A DNA stretch of 64,000 nucleotides from a virus. Of this stretch, positions 13,692-23,205 are shown one piece after another. The DNA lies in the UHGV virus genome UHGV-0134778; one strand, 5' to 3'. Position 1 is the stretch's first letter; each line of letters begins with the position of its first letter. A model generated the notes under the pieces. The model made no database searches, was not told the DNA's origin, and saw only the letters and a list, made by a program, of their open reading frames with translations. Both the position numbers and the translations under genes were made by a program.

Positions 13692-13768
13692 TGGTCTCCA
13701 CGGAGTGATTCGAACACTCGACCTCCTGATCCCAAATCAGGCGCTCTACCAAGCTGAGCTACGCGGAG
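13692..13768 (-). tRNA. tRNA-Pro (anticodon TGG)
   Basis: Hand-folded cloverleaf: 7-bp acceptor stem, D arm GCTC/GAGC, anticodon loop TTTGGGA, T loop TTCGAAT, encoded CCA. Confidence 0.85.
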
Positions 13769-13779
13769 TATTTATTATT

Positions 13780-13854
13780 TGGTGGCCCTGGGTGGAATTG
13801 AACCACCGTCTGGCGATTATGAGTCGCTTGCTTGAACCTTCCAGCTACAGGGCC
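13780..13854 (-). tRNA. tRNA-Met (anticodon CAT; elongator type, could be lysidine-modified Ile2)
   Basis: Acceptor GGCCCTG/CAGGGCC, anticodon loop CTCATAA, T loop TTCAATT, encoded CCA; G1-C72 pair argues against initiator. Confidence 0.8.
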
Positions 13855-13855
13855 A

Positions 13856-13931
13856 TGGTGCTGATGGCAGGACTTGAACCTGCAACCTATTGATTACAAA
13901 TCAATTGCACTGCCAATTGTGCTACATCAGC
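13856..13931 (-). tRNA. tRNA-Thr (anticodon TGT)
   Basis: Perfect 7-bp acceptor stem GCTGATG/CATCAGC, anticodon stem-loop ATTGA-TTTGTAA-TCAAT, T loop TTCAAGT, encoded CCA. Confidence 0.85.
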
Positions 13932-13935
13932 AAAA

Positions 13936-14034
13936 GGTGCTAGGTGATGGAATCGAACCACCTATGTATTCAACGACTACCTCGTCTATTTTCAGGATTA
14001 AAAATCCTCGCCCTTGCCAAAGGGCTTACCTAGC
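13936..14034 (-). tRNA. atypical tRNA-like element (99 nt): possible non-canonical tRNA or tRNA pseudogene
   Basis: Perfect 7-bp acceptor stem (GCTAGGT/ACCTAGC), canonical D arm and T arm (GGTGG-TTCGATT-CCATC), but A8-A9 instead of U8, an AGGATT-TTT-AATCCT hairpin in place of a standard anticodon arm, and a ~31-nt insert containing a second hairpin; no CCA encoded. Confidence 0.35.
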
Positions 14035-14132
14035 GCAATATGTTGACCATGTGGCTAGTCGGCGATGACGACTGTAACATTTGATAATCCGGTTCTGCTT
14101 CCGGCTTTCGCTTAATTACAAGGTCAACAATG

Positions 14133-14223
14133 TGGCGGAGAGTAATGGAATCGAACCATCATCGAGTCATCCTCAACGGGACGGTTTTCAAGACCGCTTG
14201 AGCACCATTGCTCCCTACCCTCC
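14133..14223 (-). tRNA. tRNA-Ser (anticodon TGA), class II with long variable arm
   Basis: Acceptor GGAGGGT/ACTCTCC with one G-U pair, anticodon stem-loop GCGGT-CTTGAAA-ACCGT, ~20-nt variable arm, T loop TTCGATT, encoded CCA. Confidence 0.8.
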
Positions 14224-14337
14224 TTTATAAATTACACTGATAATGACACTGATTTTCGAGCAGTTAGTGACTAGTATAAACGACGATAAATATCAATGTC
14301 ATTATCTGTATGATTTATGCATTTAAAAATATAAATT

Positions 14338-14424
14338 TGGTGGGGAGTGGTGGAGTCGAACCACCCGAGTCGCAATGACAATAGATTTACAGTCTACACC
14401 GCTACCTCTACGGGATAACTCCCC
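14338..14424 (-). tRNA. tRNA-Tyr (anticodon GTA), class II
   Basis: Acceptor GGGGAGT/ACTCCCC, anticodon stem-loop GTAGA-CTGTAAA-TCTAT, variable arm, T arm GGTGG-TTCGACT-CCACC, encoded CCA. Confidence 0.8.
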
Positions 14425-14428
14425 AATT

Positions 14429-14503
14429 TGGCACCCCGTACTGGACTCGAACCAGTGTCAACGGCTTAGAAGGCCGCTGCTTTATCCACTAAGCTAACAG
14501 GGC
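14429..14503 (-). tRNA. tRNA-Arg (anticodon TCT)
   Basis: Acceptor GCCCTGT/ACGGGGT with two G-U pairs, D arm GCTT/AAGC, anticodon stem-loop GCGGC-CTTCTAA-GCCGT, T arm ACTGG-TTCGAGT-CCAGT, encoded CCA. Confidence 0.8.
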
Positions 14504-16970: not shown

Positions 16971-17041
16971 CTAACCTCTGTTCCAGAGTGAACATAAAAC
17001 ATACAAATCCTTATAGTACAGATGTTTAAGTTTTTACTGGT

Positions 17042-17392
17042 CTAACCAGTTGTTGACATTCGAATAACTTCTTCTGGTGGCAAAACTTTGGAAAATGTGC
17101 ATCTTTTACCTCTCCCTTGTGTGGATATTTCAACCACTCCTGCACATTCTAAAGTTTTAACGCACGCTGCTGCTTTTGTTTTCTTTATCCCAACATCTGC
17201 TGCAATTTTCCTTGTGCTTGGTGTGAAGCGTGAATTTTCTCCAAGCTTATACCAGTTGTGCAGGTAGCAGTATACGATCTTGTCATATAAGTCAAGAACA
17301 ACAACCTCCCCAGTTGTGTCATTCAAAACTTTTGACATAGACAGTATTTCAAGGGGGACTTTAAGATATAGCAGCTTATCCCCATCTTTCAT
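17042..17392 (-). CDS. putative HTH DNA-binding protein
   Basis: 116 aa; segment TRKIAADVGIKKTKAAACVKTLECAGVVEI has a helix-turn-helix-like pattern; AGGAGA RBS; gene ends ~70 bp from the iteron array. Confidence 0.45.
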   Translation of the reverse strand: MKDGDKLLYLKVPLEILSMSKVLNDTTGEVVVLDLYDKIVYCYLHNWYKLGENSRFTPSTRKIAADVGIKKTKAAACVKTLECAGVVEISTQGRGKRCTFSKVLPPEEVIRMSTTG

Positions 17393-17439
17393 ATCTCCTG
17401 ATTCTCCTTGTGTGGCAATTTTCTTTAAAATAGCAGGGA

Positions 17440-17994
17440 TTACTCCCCGCTGTCAATAGCAAGACTCATTGCAATACGGTATGCCTCTTCTAATGGTAAG
17501 AGTCTCCCCCACACATCCCAACCGACATCAAACTGCCTGCCAAACAACTGCTGTGTGGTTCCGTGAGCATGACCGAACAGTTGGACTGATCCGTGAGGCT
17601 TTCTGTTCCACTTTGCAAACTGGTAATGGCTCATACAGATCAAATTCTTGTTGTGGCGAAGCTCGTAATAATCTACAACCTCATGACCGAACTCTTTCAT
17701 AATTCTGACAGTCGTCCTTGTGTCATGGTTACCACGAACAAGAATAATATGTCCGTTCAACATATTTAGAACATCTGGAAGCAATTTGTTGATATTCTTA
17801 TCATTAGTGCACGCAATATCCCCCAAGTGAAACACAGTGTCTGCAGGTGACACAACAGAGTTCCACTTGGTGATGATTCCCGCATTCATACTGTCAAGAT
17901 TGTGATCATACTGAGATCTGTGTTTTTGACATGAGTCGAACTCCATTACCCGCTGGTGGAGAAAGTGTGTGTCGCTTGTTACAAAGTATTTCAT
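17440..17994 (-). CDS. calcineurin-like metallophosphoesterase (candidate RNA end-healing 2',3' phosphatase or Ser/Thr phosphatase)
   Basis: Motifs DxH (SDTHF), GDIA, GNHD and downstream His residues characteristic of binuclear metallophosphoesterases; start trimmed to MKYF with GAGGAA RBS. Confidence 0.6.
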   Translation of the reverse strand: MKYFVTSDTHFLHQRVMEFDSCQKHRSQYDHNLDSMNAGIITKWNSVVSPADTVFHLGDIACTNDKNINKLLPDVLNMLNGHIILVRGNHDTRTTVRIMKEFGHEVVDYYELRHNKNLICMSHYQFAKWNRKPHGSVQLFGHAHGTTQQLFGRQFDVGWDVWGRLLPLEEAYRIAMSLAIDSGE

Positions 17995-18001
17995 ACATTC
18001 C

Positions 18002-18412
18002 TCATTTAAGTTTAATGCAGTTTTTAAGCTGGCGTTCCATACGATCCACAACCCTGTCTGGAACATCATGAATGCTTTTATTACCATGGCGGTTTTCAAC
18101 CACGATCACGGTATAACTATATCCATGACTGATCGCCATGTCAATATATTCTTGCACATATTTTTCTTTTGTAAACGTATTACTTACCACGATACGGTCG
18201 TAGCCCATACGCATCATATCTTCTACGTTATCTTTGCACCATTTTGCTGCAAGTGTTACTTTACTTGCATCCCAATTGTAATTGCCGTCATCGTCGTACC
18301 AGAACATATCGTTCTCAAAATGTGGATACAGACCTTCTAAAGATAGCGCATTTGCCAGTGTTGATTTGCCAGACCCTGGTAGACCACGCACGATATATAG
18401 CATTTTAGACAT
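18002..18412 (-). CDS. polynucleotide 5'-kinase-like P-loop kinase
   Basis: Walker A GLPGSGKST plus IVVSNT segment resembling the T4 Pnk kinase domain (CPGSGKST ... ISDTN); start trimmed to MSKMLYIVRG. Confidence 0.55.
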   Translation of the reverse strand: MSKMLYIVRGLPGSGKSTLANALSLEGLYPHFENDMFWYDDDGNYNWDASKVTLAAKWCKDNVEDMMRMGYDRIVVSNTFTKEKYVQEYIDMAISHGYSYTVIVVENRHGNKSIHDVPDRVVDRMERQLKNCIKLK

Positions 18413-18533
18413 AGTAACTCTCCGTTTTAATTTTAATGATAGTATACCTAACTGTTTTGTTAATTTCAAGTGTTGACACCAAGTTATTTGTGTGGCAGGA
18501 TAAAGGGACAAAATGACAAATGAGGAATGTATA

Positions 18534-19448
18534 ATGAAGTATTTTAATGCAGACGACCTAGTTGACAAAGGTCTTGTAACCAGCAGATATTACCCGGATC
18601 TTGGGTTAAAGATCTATAAATATGCCAGAAAAGTATTCTACAACAATTTATGGCATTTGTCTCCTCGTTTGCTGGAGTGCCGAGGCATTGTTGTCGGTAA
18701 TGAAGGAAATGTTGTGGCATGGCCCTTCACAAAAGTGTTTAACTTGGGAGAAAATTCCACCAACCTGCCTGACAATAAACTTGTGACGGCGGTAGAGAAA
18801 AAGAACGGATTCCTTGGTGTGGTATCATCTCATAAAGGTGAACTATTGTTCTCAACAACCGGGTCTCTTGATTCTCCATATTGTAACCTTGCAAAGGAAA
18901 CAATCCAGGAGCAATGTGGTAATTTAGATCTTATCAAGAGGGTTATGGGCCATGAAAACATGACATTCATGTTTGAAATTTGTCACCCTTCAGATCCGCA
19001 TATTGTTCAGGAAGATCATGGCGCATATTTGATAGGTTGCAGATATAATGATTCTGGAATAATGCTACCAGAAGCAGCTTTAGATGGGATTGCCAAATAC
19101 CTTGGTGCAAAACGTCCTCACACTGTGCGTGAAATTCCGTTCAGCTATGCAAAAGAATTAGCTGCAGAAACAAGAGGTGAAGGGTATATGATTCGTAAGC
19201 CTTACTACCCTTATGATCTGCAGCTGAAGATCAAGTCTCCATACTATTTGGCACGGAAGGCCGTAATGAGGGGTAAAGCTTGGAAGATTTGGGATGATGA
19301 TATCTTTAAACGTGTTGACGAAGAGTTTTATGGCATGGTAAACTTCATTCGTAGCAATTACACAGAAGATGTGTGGAACTGCCTCCTGGAGCAAGAACGT
19401 CGTGAGATACTTGACTGCTATTTCCACAACGAGGACTATATGCAATGA
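18534..19448 (+). CDS. putative RNA ligase (covalent nucleotidyltransferase superfamily)
   Basis: Ligase motif I KxNG (EKKNGFLG), motif IV-like EGYMIRK, motif V-like LKIK; ~300 aa, too small for a DNA ligase and a separate DNA ligase gene exists; start at second ATG with GAGGAA RBS (ORF-track start 18513). Confidence 0.5.
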   Translation: MKYFNADDLVDKGLVTSRYYPDLGLKIYKYARKVFYNNLWHLSPRLLECRGIVVGNEGNVVAWPFTKVFNLGENSTNLPDNKLVTAVEKKNGFLGVVSSHKGELLFSTTGSLDSPYCNLAKETIQEQCGNLDLIKRVMGHENMTFMFEICHPSDPHIVQEDHGAYLIGCRYNDSGIMLPEAALDGIAKYLGAKRPHTVREIPFSYAKELAAETRGEGYMIRKPYYPYDLQLKIKSPYYLARKAVMRGKAWKIWDDDIFKRVDEEFYGMVNFIRSNYTEDVWNCLLEQERREILDCYFHNEDYMQ

Positions 19449-19795
19449 AGAAGTTGATTGTGTGGCTGGATGACTTGAGAGATCCGTCAAATTATGGGCT
19501 CCCAGATGCTCTTTGGCTAAAGAATTCCTCTGAGTTTATGGATTTTATTAACGATAAGGGAAAGCTCTACAGGCGCGTTTCTGAGTGGCACATGGACAAC
19601 GATCTTGGAGAGGTATTTGAAGGGTACGATTGCCTATCTATGTTGGAGGAAAAATTTGTATTTGGTAAGCCTCCTGTAGTTGACAACGTGAAGATTTTCG
19701 TGCATACTTCTAACCCATCAGCGGCTCGTAAATTCATGATTGCTGCTGACTCGTTTAAAAAGTTTGGAATAGAGATTAAACAAAACATCTACTGA
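19445..19795 (+). CDS. hypothetical protein
   Basis: 116-aa ORF overlapping the ligase stop; no motif recognised. Confidence 0.45.
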   Translation: MKKLIVWLDDLRDPSNYGLPDALWLKNSSEFMDFINDKGKLYRRVSEWHMDNDLGEVFEGYDCLSMLEEKFVFGKPPVVDNVKIFVHTSNPSAARKFMIAADSFKKFGIEIKQNIY

Positions 19796-19803
19796 GGACA
19801 CTT

Positions 19804-20565
19804 ATGCGACGACTGATCATTATCTCCGGTGCTGGTTTGAGCGCTGAATCTGGTATCCCCACTTTCCGATCTGGTGGCACTGCAATGTGGGAGAATTTCA
19901 GCATCGATGAGGTGTGTAACATCCACACCTTTGCCAAGAACTACTATAAGGTGCATGACTTTTACAATGCACGGCGTGTAGCTCTGGGCAGTGTTGATCC
20001 TAACCTTGCACATCTCCGGATCGCTGAGTGGTATTCACGCTGGTCTGGTCGTGTGATCAACCTGACAACCAATGTAGATGATTTGCTGGAGCGTGCTGGT
20101 GTAAAACATGAAGATATTTTACATGTCCACGGATATTTGCCAGAAATAGTCTACGAGGATGATGAAGGGAGTAACGTCATTAAAGACATTGGATACTCTG
20201 AGGTAGACGCAAGCAAGTATACTTGGGTTAAGCCTAATGTAGTGTTTTTCGGAGAAGTAGCTCCAAAGTATACAGACATGTATGACCTGTTGACTTCTCT
20301 GACGAGCAATGATATGGTTATCCTTGTAGGGTGCTCCAACACAGTTATCAATTTTAACTGGGAGCTATTCCCTGCCTGTAATAAGGGAACCAAACTGCTG
20401 ATCGTTAACAAATACGACTCACAGCATTTAGGGGAGAATGGCATTTCACGTAGTGACATTTACCAGTATGAGGATCGCGGCATCCCAGTTTGGTTTAACG
20501 GGGCGGTTGACGCTTTCTCTGATAAAACATTTATTGACATCGTAGAAAACTTTATGGAACTGTAA
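19804..20565 (+). CDS. Sir2-family (sirtuin-like) NAD-binding protein
   Basis: Canonical sirtuin motifs GAGLSAESGIPTFR, TTNVDDL, catalytic His in HVHG, VVFFGE; no Cys-rich zinc ribbon visible between the HG and FGE motifs. Confidence 0.8.
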   Translation: MRRLIIISGAGLSAESGIPTFRSGGTAMWENFSIDEVCNIHTFAKNYYKVHDFYNARRVALGSVDPNLAHLRIAEWYSRWSGRVINLTTNVDDLLERAGVKHEDILHVHGYLPEIVYEDDEGSNVIKDIGYSEVDASKYTWVKPNVVFFGEVAPKYTDMYDLLTSLTSNDMVILVGCSNTVINFNWELFPACNKGTKLLIVNKYDSQHLGENGISRSDIYQYEDRGIPVWFNGAVDAFSDKTFIDIVENFMEL

Positions 20566-20579
20566 GCGGAGGCCTTTTA

Positions 20580-21293
20580 ATGCTGAATACTAAACTGATC
20601 GACAACCTGGAAAAACTGTCTCAGCCTGAAAACTACCTTTGGTCTGCCAACTGGGTGGAAAATTGGAACCGTGTAGCAGCTAAAGTGAAAAAATCATACA
20701 CACCATTCGAACTTCAGCTGAGTTTCATTGAGGAAGAGTTCAATGAAGTTTTGGAAGAGTTGGAGAAAGGTGATGGTGGGGATCATCTCCTAAAAGAGGC
20801 CTGCGATCTTCACGTTGTCACAAGTTATGCCGCTTATCTTGTTAACGATAACCATGAAAAGTGGTCAAACCTGTTTGATAATCCGCGAGGTCTTAAGTTT
20901 AAGATCGGTGAATTTTATGATACACTGATCGCTGCGAAAAATACCTCTAAGCAAAGAGCGTCTGCTTACCGCTTAGCAGAGCTGTCAACGGCTTTACTGT
21001 TCCAGCTTCGCGGTGATGTGTGCGGGATGATGCGGAAGGTTCTAAAATCTAATGACAGCAAGTTTGCACGTGTCAACCATCTGCGGCATTCACACGGTGC
21101 CAGTGCAGATATGCCTGCTGAACAACTCATCGAGTTGGAGATTAAAGATCTTGAGCGACGCTTTGATGGTCGCTATGAAGGTTTTGTTGCTAAAGAAGAA
21201 TTCTACAACGGAAATAAAGTTATCATATTCCTCGACAGTAAAGGTAAGATTATGAAGCCTTCAAGCTTCAAGGATGTAACAGAATATATTTAA
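20580..21293 (+). CDS. hypothetical protein, possible MazG-like nucleotide pyrophosphohydrolase fold
   Basis: Acidic EExxE-like helix (FIEEEFNEVLEELEKGD) reminiscent of MazG/HisE all-alpha NTP pyrophosphatases; weak. Confidence 0.3.
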   Translation: MLNTKLIDNLEKLSQPENYLWSANWVENWNRVAAKVKKSYTPFELQLSFIEEEFNEVLEELEKGDGGDHLLKEACDLHVVTSYAAYLVNDNHEKWSNLFDNPRGLKFKIGEFYDTLIAAKNTSKQRASAYRLAELSTALLFQLRGDVCGMMRKVLKSNDSKFARVNHLRHSHGASADMPAEQLIELEIKDLERRFDGRYEGFVAKEEFYNGNKVIIFLDSKGKIMKPSSFKDVTEYI

Positions 21294-21299
21294 TAACAT

Positions 21300-21320
21300 A
21301 GCCGGGGCGATCCCGGCTTT
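21300..21320 (+). terminator. putative terminator hairpin
   Basis: GCCGGG-gcgat-CCCGGC followed by TTT, directly after the stop codon. Confidence 0.45.
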
Positions 21321-21666: not shown

Positions 21667-21922
21667 TCTTGCTAGACCTGTAGAAGCACACCAGTTTGAC
21701 GGAAGCTCTTCATCAGTATCTGATCTGCAACGGTGGATTGATACAGGTGTGTTTACACCGTCACCTGTTCGGACCAGAGATATTCTTCGCATGTGTGAGC
21801 TTGTCGAGCCGTTTGGTAACCTGGTCTTGTACCAAGGGGATTGGTTAGTTGACTTTATGGGAGACTGGTTGGTAATGAGCAAAGAAGAGATGTTTAAAAT
21901 TTTTAAGGAAGAGGCTGAGTAA
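21653..21922 (+). CDS. hypothetical protein
   Basis: 89-aa ORF with short overlaps to both neighbours. Confidence 0.4.
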   Translation: MPLFNLARPVEAHQFDGSSSSVSDLQRWIDTGVFTPSPVRTRDILRMCELVEPFGNLVLYQGDWLVDFMGDWLVMSKEEMFKIFKEEAE

Positions 21923-23205
21923 TGCATCAGATCAAAACAACACTGTACGCACTGAACAAAGATGGCAGCTACCAACAGTGGAAAGTATTCACGGATGGTG
22001 ATAAGGTTATCGTAGAGTTTGGCAAGCTTGATGGTAAACTGCAATACAAAGAGACGATCTGCACACCTAAGAACGTGGGTCGTGCCAATGAAACTACAGC
22101 TGAGCAACAGGCTGAGCTGGAAGCGATCAGTAAGTGGGAAAAACAAGTCCGTCTGGGGTATGTTGAAAATATGGAAGATTGCGAGCAGGGTGTTGACCTT
22201 TTACCCATGTTGGTGCATGACTACCTGAAGCGTGGAAAGGCACTTAAATTACCTTGCTGGATTTTGCGTAAGTTAGATGGCCTTCGTCTACTGGTTGTTT
22301 TCCAAAACGGTGAGCCTAAATTTATTTCCCGTGGTAATAAGTCCTACCCTATTCAAGGAAAGCTTCTGGAGCAACTTCGTTCTTTCCACTTCACCACCGG
22401 GATTAAACAGCTCGACGGAGAGATCTATATTCATGGTCTGCCTCTGCAGAAAATAGTGTCTCTTGCTAAACGTTGGCGCACACAGGAAGAGATTCAGGCC
22501 GAGATCGATAAAGACTACGAGGCAGATAAAAAACGCCGTCATGCCGCAATTAAGGCAGGCTTATCAACATACAAAAACTTCAATAAGGTAGATATTCCTG
22601 TTGATGTTGAGCCTGTTCGTGATGATTTGCGTTACGGAGGGTACTGTAGCTATGACTTAGAGTATCATATTTTCGACATCCCTAGTGACAAGGTATGGTG
22701 GGATCCAGAAACAGAATCTGGACGATGCAAGGATCTTATGGATGCAGAAGATACCATTACCACCCTGATGCTTGACCATATCAAGGTTGTTGACGCAGAG
22801 CTTGCGTACACAGTTGATCATTGCGAAGAATCTGTTGGTGTATTCATGTCCGAAGGATATGAAGGTACTATCATGCGTAACTTCTGCGGTAAATATGAAT
22901 ATGGTCAGCGAACATCTGAAGCATTGAAATGGAAAAAGTTCAACGATGCTGAGGTGAAAGTTATTGACGTTGAGAAAGATAAGAATGATGAAGGTGTTCT
23001 TATCTGCGTTGACAAGGAAGGTATCGTTGTTAAAATGAAGATGAAAGGCACGCACGAGGAGCGTAGCTATGACAGGATGCAGGAAATGATCGGCAAGTTT
23101 GTCACCTTCAAATATCAAGCAAGGACAGAAGACAACAACTACCAATTCCCTGTCGGCATCTGCGTCCGAAATGTTAACCCTGACACTTGGGAGGTTCTGG
23201 AATGA
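21922..23205 (+). CDS. ATP-dependent DNA ligase
   Basis: Motif I KLDG (ILRKLDGLR), motif III-like FDIPS, motif IV EGTIMR, motif V LKWKKF, followed by an OB-fold-sized C-terminal region. Confidence 0.7.
   Translation: MHQIKTTLYALNKDGSYQQWKVFTDGDKVIVEFGKLDGKLQYKETICTPKNVGRANETTAEQQAELEAISKWEKQVRLGYVENMEDCEQGVDLLPMLVHDYLKRGKALKLPCWILRKLDGLRLLVVFQNGEPKFISRGNKSYPIQGKLLEQLRSFHFTTGIKQLDGEIYIHGLPLQKIVSLAKRWRTQEEIQAEIDKDYEADKKRRHAAIKAGLSTYKNFNKVDIPVDVEPVRDDLRYGGYCSYDLEYHIFDIPSDKVWWDPETESGRCKDLMDAEDTITTLMLDHIKVVDAELAYTVDHCEESVGVFMSEGYEGTIMRNFCGKYEYGQRTSEALKWKKFNDAEVKVIDVEKDKNDEGVLICVDKEGIVVKMKMKGTHEERSYDRMQEMIGKFVTFKYQARTEDNNYQFPVGICVRNVNPDTWEVLE

Follow-up and report, generated by a model that had tools for sequence, protein, structure and literature searches.

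A kinase, metallophosphoesterase and Rnl1-family ligase cassette of an rV5-like coliphage as a probable RNA end repair set

Cleavage of tRNA is now seen as a common mode of defence, examples being PrrC, RloC, retron-Eco7 PtuAB, PARIS AriB and P2 Old, and to our knowledge phage RNA repair outside T4 is known almost only from sequence. The closest described systems distribute the repair steps in different ways. In phage T4, Pnkp (pseT) and Rnl1 (rnlA) act against PrrC; the phosphatase of Pnkp is of the HAD (DxDxT) type and is fused to the kinase, Rnl1 has a tRNA-binding domain of ~120 aa, and the T4 annotation table places the repair genes at separate positions. Clostridium thermocellum Pnkp (CthPnkp), of the Pnkp/Hen1 system, carries kinase, binuclear metallophosphoesterase and ligase in one protein, while fungi and plants use Trl1 (ligase-kinase-CPD) together with Tpt1. 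The locus examined in this study lies in a stretch of 64,000 nucleotides of the virus genome UHGV-0134778 (hereafter the window), where a metallophosphoesterase (MPE), a P-loop kinase and an Rnl1-family ligase are encoded by adjacent genes. The same three chemical steps as in T4 are proposed for it and the enzyme trio corresponds to that of CthPnkp, but the phage enzymes are three polypeptides instead of one, a separate binuclear MPE takes the place of the fused HAD phosphatase, and the genes are clustered in rV5-type phages, unlike those of T4. An earlier note, made from the letters of this DNA, had described three separate proteins on divergent strands, an arrangement unlike that of T4, and the gene map bears this out. 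A Hen1 methyltransferase was not annotated within ~6 kb of the locus in phages HMD-6 and FV3, nor was one found among the Pfam matches in the window between 17 and 23 kb.

Compared with phage records, positions 17000-20600 were 99.5% identical to Escherichia phage NHEP1. Dozens of myophages of the rV5-like group (Vequintavirus, ~136 kb), among them FV3, variants of rV5 and Bas54/MaxBurger of the BASEL collection, were 96-99% identical in this region. The window belongs to the rV5-like coliphages of the genus Vequintavirus. Its gene arrangement is already known, both from routine annotation, since the records of its relatives label a phosphoesterase, an ATPase or polynucleotide kinase, an RNA ligase, a cyclic-phosphate-processing receiver-domain protein, a Sir2 protein and a nucleotide pyrophosphohydrolase, and from a published prediction. 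Iyer, Burroughs, Anantharaman and Aravind (2022; Viruses 14:1977, PMC9503650) described the same neighbourhood in the same phage group, naming Escherichia phage V5 and Proteus phage Mydo, and predicted an NAD+-using RNA repair system, a sirtuin-centred neighbourhood of type 2 in which the sirtuin would act like KptA/Tpt1. Because neighbourhood and predicted role have thus been published, little is added here as discovery. In contrast to the sirtuin-centred prediction, the view taken here is ligase-centred, with the trio as core and the cREC, Sir2 and MazG-like genes as add-ons, and it is extended by the exchange of modules (Rnl2-type ligase, T4-type polynucleotide kinase) and by fusions in cyanobacteria and Cardiobacteriaceae. 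Considering family membership, conserved catalytic residues, fold similarity, linkage, fusions and dispensability in the laboratory, kinase, MPE and ligase probably form a heal-and-seal set for the repair of RNA ends.

The ligase contains the motifs K96-K-N-G99, FEI (154-156), EGYMIRK (223-229) and LKIK (238-241). It matches Pfam PF09511 RNA_lig_T4_1 over residues 55-245 (55.3 bits, cut-off 28.3, E 1.1e-14) and phrog_562, the PHROG family of T4 gp63 (1.6e-65). An alignment of 20 homologues (41-50% identity) shows no variation at K96, N98, G99, E155, E223, G224, K239 and K241, K96 being the predicted adenylylation lysine. Single-sequence PDB searches were uninformative for ligase and kinase, and family profiles were used instead. 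The 20-sequence ligase profile had T4 Rnl1 as its sole match (3.4e-13), over the homologous nucleotidyltransferase domain, with the motifs aligned to K99, FEF, EGY and KIK of T4 Rnl1. T4 Lys119, which is reported to be essential, is aligned with an invariant Thr116 in the phage family, a difference between the two. An AlphaFold (AF2) model (pLDDT 88) gave fungal Trl1 ligase, T4 Rnl1 and archaeal Rnl3 as fold matches (E 6e-12 to 1e-9), with Trl1 ligase domains at the top, against only 1e-3 to 1e-2 for DNA ligases. Profile and fold together mark the protein as an RNA-type ligase rather than a DNA ligase or capping enzyme, the assignments that the earlier note had named as refuting its proposal. 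It is, judged from these comparisons, not an orthologue of T4 Rnl1: the score against the T4 RnlA equivalog, NCBIfam TIGR02308, is 39 bits for a cut-off of 242 and covers only model positions 32-250 of 373, and in place of the large tRNA-binding domain of Rnl1 the model has ~65 residues of helix at the C-terminus. The Rnl1-like phage enzyme also differs from CthPnkp, no ligase structure of which is among its best 50 fold matches.

Database names of the type "RNA ligase 1 and tail attachment protein", together with the category "tail" of phrog_562, would suggest that the protein is mainly a catalyst of tail-fibre attachment, as T4 gp63, with neighbours unrelated to this function. These names, however, are inherited from T4 by homology, the equivalog score is far below its cut-off, and the gene lies in a nucleotide-metabolism block, away from the tail genes. 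The HIDEN-SEQ preprint on Bas54 infecting E. coli K-12 reports the ligase, kinase, phosphoesterase, Sir2 and MazG-like genes as non-essential, with insertions at 56/60 TA sites of the ligase, 33/36 of the kinase and 26/27 of the MPE; the cREC gene was scored "Intermediate" (16/21). In the same work the N-domain of T4 rnlA was intolerant of insertions. Since the Bas54 ligase is dispensable and the T4 rnlA N-domain is not, the tail attachment label is unsupported for the rV5 enzyme, and a mainly tail-fibre role is extremely improbable.

The kinase has a P-loop, GLPGSGKST, at residues 10-18 (nt 18359-18385) and the motif IVVSNT at residues 74-79. It scores 41.1 bits against Pfam AAA_33 (cut-off 27, 2.7e-10), 2.2e-58 against phrog_2071 and 3.1e-10 against phrog_505, annotated "polynucleotide kinase". 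In the homologue alignment the P-loop, D35 and R108 do not vary, and little or no variation is seen across G10-T18, E33 and D35. D35 aligns with the general base of T4 Pnk, Asp35. R108 aligns near T4 Arg122-126, a stretch that includes the lid arginine Arg126, but it does so inside a loop. Among PDB entries the family profile found the Rhizopus kinase 9D8A as best match, a second point of likeness to the Trl1/Tpt1 system, followed by T4 Pnk (5.5e-5, full length), Pnkp1 from the Pnkp1-Rnl-Hen1 complex (5.6e-5), the tRNA kinase PSTK (7e-5) and CthPnk (3e-3); the solved relatives, mammalian PNKP included, span E 1e-5 to 1e-2. The AF2 model (pLDDT 84) gave query-normalised TM scores of 0.73-0.77 for T4 Pnk and CthPnk, 0.73 for PSTK and 0.71 for Pnkp1 (Foldseek E for all these fold matches ~1e-4), and of 0.45-0.6 for shikimate, gluconate and adenylate kinases. 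These closest folds place the protein in the polynucleotide kinase clade shared with T4 Pnk, not in an unrelated NTPase family. Superposition on the kinase domain of Clostridium thermocellum Pnkp, which had been proposed as a check, gave a TM score of 0.76-0.77 at 22-24% identity.

The MPE carries the motifs SDTH (D8, H10), GDIA (58-61), GNHD (88-91), H123 and GHAHG (141-145), and 17 homologues keep, without exception, all seven ligands of the binuclear metal site (D8, H10, D59, N89, H123, H142 and H144). It passes the Pfam cut-offs narrowly, at 28.5 bits for Metallophos_2 (cut-off 27, 1.7e-6) and 27.8 for Metallophos (cut-off 21.5, 4.1e-6), and matches phrog_547 at 5e-51. A protein Ser/Thr phosphatase, the identity that would have spoken against the proposal, is not indicated, as the profile had no significant match to a solved one in the PDB. 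The enzyme is predicted to remove 2',3'-cyclic or 3'-phosphate ends. The Pfam families foreseen in the earlier note were in this way all recovered above their gathering scores; like the PHROG matches, they stand far beyond chance. A re-reading of the sequence found the adjacent genes and their quoted motifs in place, apart from the spacing of ligase motif IV, given as EGxxxK where the protein has EGxxxxK.

Conservation of the trio across phages is in agreement with a common function. Among 50,697 phage genomes and records, the ligase was detected in 664 and the kinase in 616, with nearly identical counts of ligase and kinase by genus: Escherichia (199/198), Pseudomonas (175/173), Klebsiella (36/36), Acinetobacter (24/24), Salmonella (14/14) and Aeromonas (13/13). 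Of 17 IMG/VR loci, whose ligases are 40-46% identical, 16 have the gene order MPE, ligase, kinase on one strand; in the remaining one, on a contig of 302 kb, no kinase gene was present within 8 kb. Relative to this order the kinase-MPE pair of rV5 is inverted but still adjacent to the ligase. Justusliebigvirus alia has the trio back-to-back with cREC two genes upstream, and the trio was also found in Pakpunavirus PaP1 (Pseudomonas), in Acinetobacter Saclayvirus, where the gene labelled "Nudix" is the MPE, and in a contig of a Flavobacteriaceae metagenome-assembled genome. The cREC, Sir2 and MazG genes were present in none of the 17 IMG/VR loci. In this distribution ligase, kinase and MPE constitute a widely conserved core, to which cREC, Sir2 and MazG are lineage-restricted additions. 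Modules can also be exchanged: unrelated freshwater phages have a kinase-MPE pair 2 kb from an Rnl2-type PF09414 ligase, and 55 Streptomyces phages combine the ligase with a T4-type polynucleotide kinase (296 aa) in the vicinity of tRNA genes and a tmRNA. One family, phrog_8238, is matched by kinase and ligase of the window alike.

Two side observations concern the spread of the cassette. In two loci (L025, 5115-6005; L026, 3742-4632) an ORF adjoining an HNH endonuclease gene joins MPE residues 9-68 to ligase residues 54-298. Its interpretation as a genuine fusion was rejected in favour of a chimera produced by in-frame deletion; the deletion destroys both enzymes, and therefore the cassette decays in some phages. 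Furthermore, 23 records labelled as Campylobacter jejuni phages (e.g. MG065690, MG065650 and MG065676) carry a cassette that is 90-100% identical to those of E. coli rV5-like or phAPEC8-like phages, and the host labels look doubtful.

Cellular genomes contain fusions of the same domains. In 27 Leptolyngbyaceae loci a protein of ~707 aa consists of an AAA_33 kinase, a Pnkp-type Metallophos domain and a ligase of the same family as that of the window; its kinase matches 4GP6 (3.5e-11) and its MPE domain matches 4J6O (2.5e-24), both CthPnkp structures. In Leptolyngbya sp. PCC 7375 (L049, 4726-6864) an RtcB gene lies 1.6 kb from the fusion gene. Cardiobacteriaceae (L034, L036, L042 and L061) have a kinase-ligase fusion followed by a gene for an MPE of the same type as that of the phage, named after Aquifex aq_1665. 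In both families the ligase domain is 31-34% identical to the ligase of the window (profile E ~1e-70), but the domains are fused where the phage enzymes are separate; in the chromosomal cyanobacterial genes, moreover, kinase and MPE are true CthPnkp homologues and not of the phage types. An earlier description of Pnkp-like proteins with an Rnl1-type ligase domain was not found, although no search was aimed at one.

These fusions bear on the possibility that kinase and MPE act on the 5'-OH and 3'-phosphate ends of DNA and prepare them for an ATP-dependent DNA ligase encoded nearby, the RNA ligase being functionally unrelated. Such a DNA ligase gene lies a few kb from the trio in the window, in L005 and L025, in alia and in PaP1; T4 Pnk and mammalian PNKP, both among the kinase matches, act on DNA too, and the MPE has a weak, sub-threshold match to PdeM, a DNA-ligase-associated phosphoesterase. 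However, it is to the RNA ligase family, and not to a DNA ligase, that Cardiobacteriaceae and cyanobacteria fuse the kinase, the phyletic distribution of the kinase follows that of the RNA ligase, the kinase-MPE pairs of L019-L021 accompany an Rnl2-type RNA ligase with no DNA ligase visible, and the PdeM score is 20.6 bits for a cut-off of 150. A primary role in DNA end repair is therefore very unlikely.

Downstream of the ligase lie genes for cREC, a sirtuin and a MazG-like protein, which were absent from the earlier note. The start of cREC overlaps the ligase stop (ATGA), and the ligase appears to be co-transcribed with the three. The cREC protein matches PF20274 at 53.2 bits (cut-off 27, 4.8e-14) and keeps its acidic residues (LDD 8-10, MDND 50-53), its neighbours being a ligase and a sirtuin, not a histidine kinase; it was found in 344 records, all from enterobacterial phages. 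The cREC domain was defined by Iyer et al. 2021, with processing of ADP-ribose cyclic phosphates also proposed, and PMC9503650 states that it is uncharacterised, its function being predicted only. The sirtuin matches Pfam SIR2 at 1.1e-26, with SIRT5 and CobB as best solved relatives (5e-21); the catalytic His is kept, while the zinc-binding small domain is cut to ~30 residues with no Cys in 113-141. Sir2 homologues occur in 977 records, mostly of T5-like Salmonella, Escherichia and Klebsiella phages without the ligase, which argues against an obligate link between sirtuin and ligase. The MazG-like protein matches phrog_671 (1.1e-21), is annotated as nucleotide pyrophosphohydrolase in HMD-6 and FV3, and had no Pfam match. 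A phage-borne defence system was also considered as an identity for the six proteins and rejected, because PADLOC gave no defence-system identity: only two weak P-loop matches were returned, both for the kinase, and none for the sirtuin.

The accessory genes raise the question of whether the cassette is there for the metabolism of nucleotides or NAD+, or for the destruction of signals, with the kinase acting on a nucleoside or ribosyl substrate and the MPE, cREC, Sir2 and MazG-like proteins degrading or recycling NAD+-derived or cyclic-nucleotide immune signals. Genes for PRPP synthetase and Nampt/NAPRTase come after the kinase gene in PaP1, L005 and L025, a sirtuin and a MazG-like pyrophosphatase are encoded close by in rV5, ADP-ribose cyclic phosphates have been proposed as cREC substrates, and the ligase has a narrower distribution than either Sir2 or the MPE. 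This explanation, however, leaves both the RNA ligase fusions and the strict co-distribution unaccounted for, every catalytic residue of the ligase is kept, and the kinase is nearest in fold to polynucleotide and tRNA kinases, not to nucleoside or small-molecule kinases. We give it a very low probability.

A different use of the same genes, a fungal-type 2'-phosphate pathway in rV5-type phages, was raised by Iyer et al. 2022 (PMC9503650), who compared cREC to the cyclic phosphodiesterase and Sir2 to an NAD+-dependent 2'-phosphotransferase of the Trl1/Tpt1 system. In such a pathway a 2'-phosphate end would be made by cREC from the 2',3'-cyclic phosphate; sealing would fall to the Trl1-like ligase, and the 2'-phosphate left at the junction would be taken off by the Zn-less sirtuin at the expense of NAD+. 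The present data are neutral on this scheme, which in its full form we consider unlikely. The phage has no 2H phosphodiesterase or Tpt1/KptA homologue, in contrast to the Trl1/Tpt1 system, and the presence of an MPE suggests a T4/Pnkp-type route with a 3'-OH,2'-OH terminus rather than the Trl1/Tpt1 one. If the scheme were true, removal of the junction 2'-phosphate would be an activity new for sirtuins and comparable to that of Tpt1/KptA, and the aq_1665-type MPE would stand for a clade of enzymes healing RNA 3' ends that has so far gone uncharacterised.

The trio had been described as lying next to a tRNA cluster; the cluster is indeed near, but 2.9 kb away with several small ORFs between. It comprises Pro, Met, Thr(UGU), an odd 99-nt tRNA-like gene, Ser, Tyr(GUA) and Arg(UCU), seven genes by ARAGORN and six by Rfam. 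The tRNA-Thr(UGU) gene (13856-13931, - strand) has the anticodon stem AUUGA/UCAAU without a paired CNG motif, which P2 Old requires to cut host tRNA-Thr(UGU), and tRNA-Tyr(GUA) (14338-14424, - strand) has the anticodon targeted by retron-Eco7 PtuAB. From their sequences both look like nuclease-resistant replacement tRNAs. Phage tRNAs with anticodons targeted by P2 Old and PtuAB only show that the lineage faces tRNA-directed attack. The 99-nt gene (13936-14034, - strand) is called "tRNA-???" by ARAGORN, with a 4-base anticodon, scores 35.5 bits against the Rfam tRNA model (gathering 29), adopts a cloverleaf fold with one additional hairpin, in the variable arm (z -3.7), and is unannotated in FV3 and HMD-6. 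If the anticodon stem has 4 bp, the loop UUUUUAA gives the anticodon UUU (Lys), that of the tRNA attacked by PARIS AriB. This tRNA-Lys is presumably also the target of PrrC.

A neighbour of this kind, with its extra arm and ambiguous anticodon loop, could suggest that the enzymes process RNAs of the phage itself, for example by maturing or splicing an unusual tRNA-like transcript, and do not respond to damage inflicted by the host. The ligase model is as close to the tRNA-splicing Trl1 as to T4 Rnl1, and the ligase of the Streptomyces phages stands near tRNA genes and a tmRNA. On the other hand, the tolerance of all six genes to disruption in Bas54 means that no essential maturation step depends on them, and a splicing endonuclease is not among the annotated neighbours in HMD-6 and FV3. 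Processing of the phage's own RNAs is accordingly very improbable.

Several observations weigh against a heal-and-seal RNA repair set and temper the confidence placed in it. The best solved relative of the MPE profile is Aquifex aq_1665 (1XM7, 2.4e-14), a hypothetical protein, and no match to the CthPnkp phosphatase 4J6O or the lambda phosphatase 1G5B was obtained at E up to 1. Motif II reads GDIACTND and lacks the GDxxDRG form, also a difference from CthPnkp. By its profile the enzyme is thus placed outside the Pnkp/lambda-phosphatase clade, in an uncharacterised aq_1665-type clade for which a literature search found no experimental work (aq_1665/COG4186). Its role at RNA ends rests on context, because the sole clear solved relative is the uncharacterised aq_1665 and a CthPnkp or lambda match is lacking. 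With 1100 records, phages of Enterococcus, Listeria and Bacillus among them, the MPE is also spread more widely than the ligase, and Salmonella phages have 287 Sir2 homologues against 14 ligases. Kinase matches to polynucleotide kinases are significant yet modest (~1e-5), no residue of the kinase aligns with T4 Pnk Arg38, which binds the acceptor phosphate and lies in an insertion, and three sampled kinase contexts (L022-L024) lack both ligase and MPE. Neither profile nor model of the ligase contains the C-terminal tRNA-binding domain of T4 Rnl1, which leaves its tRNA specificity unproven. Part of the synteny, which in several lineages takes in the ATP-dependent DNA ligase as well, may come from common descent of these myophages. 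Finally, no biochemical or genetic study devoted to these proteins was found in the literature.

We infer from the above the enzymatic activities, the RNA substrate and the counter-defence role in the following sequence of steps. A host or competitor ribonuclease would cut an RNA, most plausibly in a tRNA anticodon loop, leaving a 2',3'-cyclic phosphate and a 5'-OH. The 136-aa kinase would phosphorylate the 5'-OH, the binuclear MPE would turn the cyclic or 3'-phosphate end into a 3'-OH, and the Rnl1-family ligase, adenylylated on K96 in an ATP-dependent reaction, would seal the ends. In line with the proposal of Iyer et al., the cREC, sirtuin and MazG-like proteins may handle cyclic or 2'-phosphate ends by a second route, one linked to NAD+. 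A nuclease-cut tRNA as substrate and counter-defence as purpose are plausible. A heal-and-seal cassette of this type would be a compact and widespread alternative to the T4 Pnkp/Rnl1 pair. Because Bas54 is tractable and the trio, the sirtuin and the MazG-like gene are dispensable in it, the nuclease that is countered, the role of the MPE and the part played by cREC and sirtuin are directly testable.

The features of the locus are listed in Table 1. The mechanically called ORFs of MPE and kinase (17440..18099 and 18002..18568) are over-long, the real starts being ATG 17994 (MKYFVTSDTHF) and ATG 18412 (MSKMLY), since each has a GGAG-type ribosome-binding site and agrees with the annotation of HMD-6, a phage 97% identical to the window. 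For the ligase, the alternative start ATG 18534 is the likelier one, given its better ribosome-binding site (GAGGAA), homologues that begin MKF... and the disorder of residues 1-6 in the model. The kinase stop codon lies inside the MPE ribosome-binding site, and the two genes would form a translationally coupled pair on the - strand, divergent from the ligase. A promoter scan found a candidate sigma-70-like site upstream of the kinase (TTGAAA-17-TATACT, - strand, 18469-18441; consensus match) and no consensus + strand site for the ligase in the 18413..18512 spacer. The hairpin at 21300-21318 has 8 pairs, 6 of them G-C, and likely closes the unit of ligase, cREC, Sir2 and MazG.

Table 1. Coordinates of the repair cassette and surrounding features in the window.
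Feature	Position	Strand	Basis
MPE gene, 184 aa	17994->17440	-	Metallophos_2, phrog_547, invariant metal ligands
P-loop kinase gene, 136 aa, polynucleotide-kinase clade, stand-alone	18412->18002	-	AAA_33, phrog_2071, fold match
Divergent intergenic region, 100 bp, between kinase-MPE and ligase operons	18413..18512	.	sigma-70-like site on - strand
Rnl1-family ATP-dependent RNA ligase gene, 311 aa (304 aa from 18534)	18513..19448	+	RNA_lig_T4_1, phrog_562
cREC gene, 116 aa	19445..19795	+	Pfam cREC_REC PF20274
Class-III-like sirtuin gene, 253 aa	19804..20565	+	Pfam SIR2
MazG-like nucleotide pyrophosphohydrolase gene, 237 aa, last of + strand unit	20580..21293	+	phrog_671
GC-rich hairpin and T-rich tail, likely terminator	21300..21318	+	consensus match only
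tRNA cluster, context only	13692..14503	-	ARAGORN, Rfam
ATP-dependent DNA ligase gene near trio	21922-23205		
HTH protein gene, 116 aa, DUF6945/HTH_36	17042-17392	-	phrog "replication initiation protein"

The HTH gene stands directly downstream of the MPE gene on the same strand, and its Bas54 orthologue was scored "Intermediate" in essentiality. Elsewhere in the window, the ~16 kb between 47500 and 64000 hold one ORF of at least 150 aa and consist otherwise of small genes or non-coding sequence.

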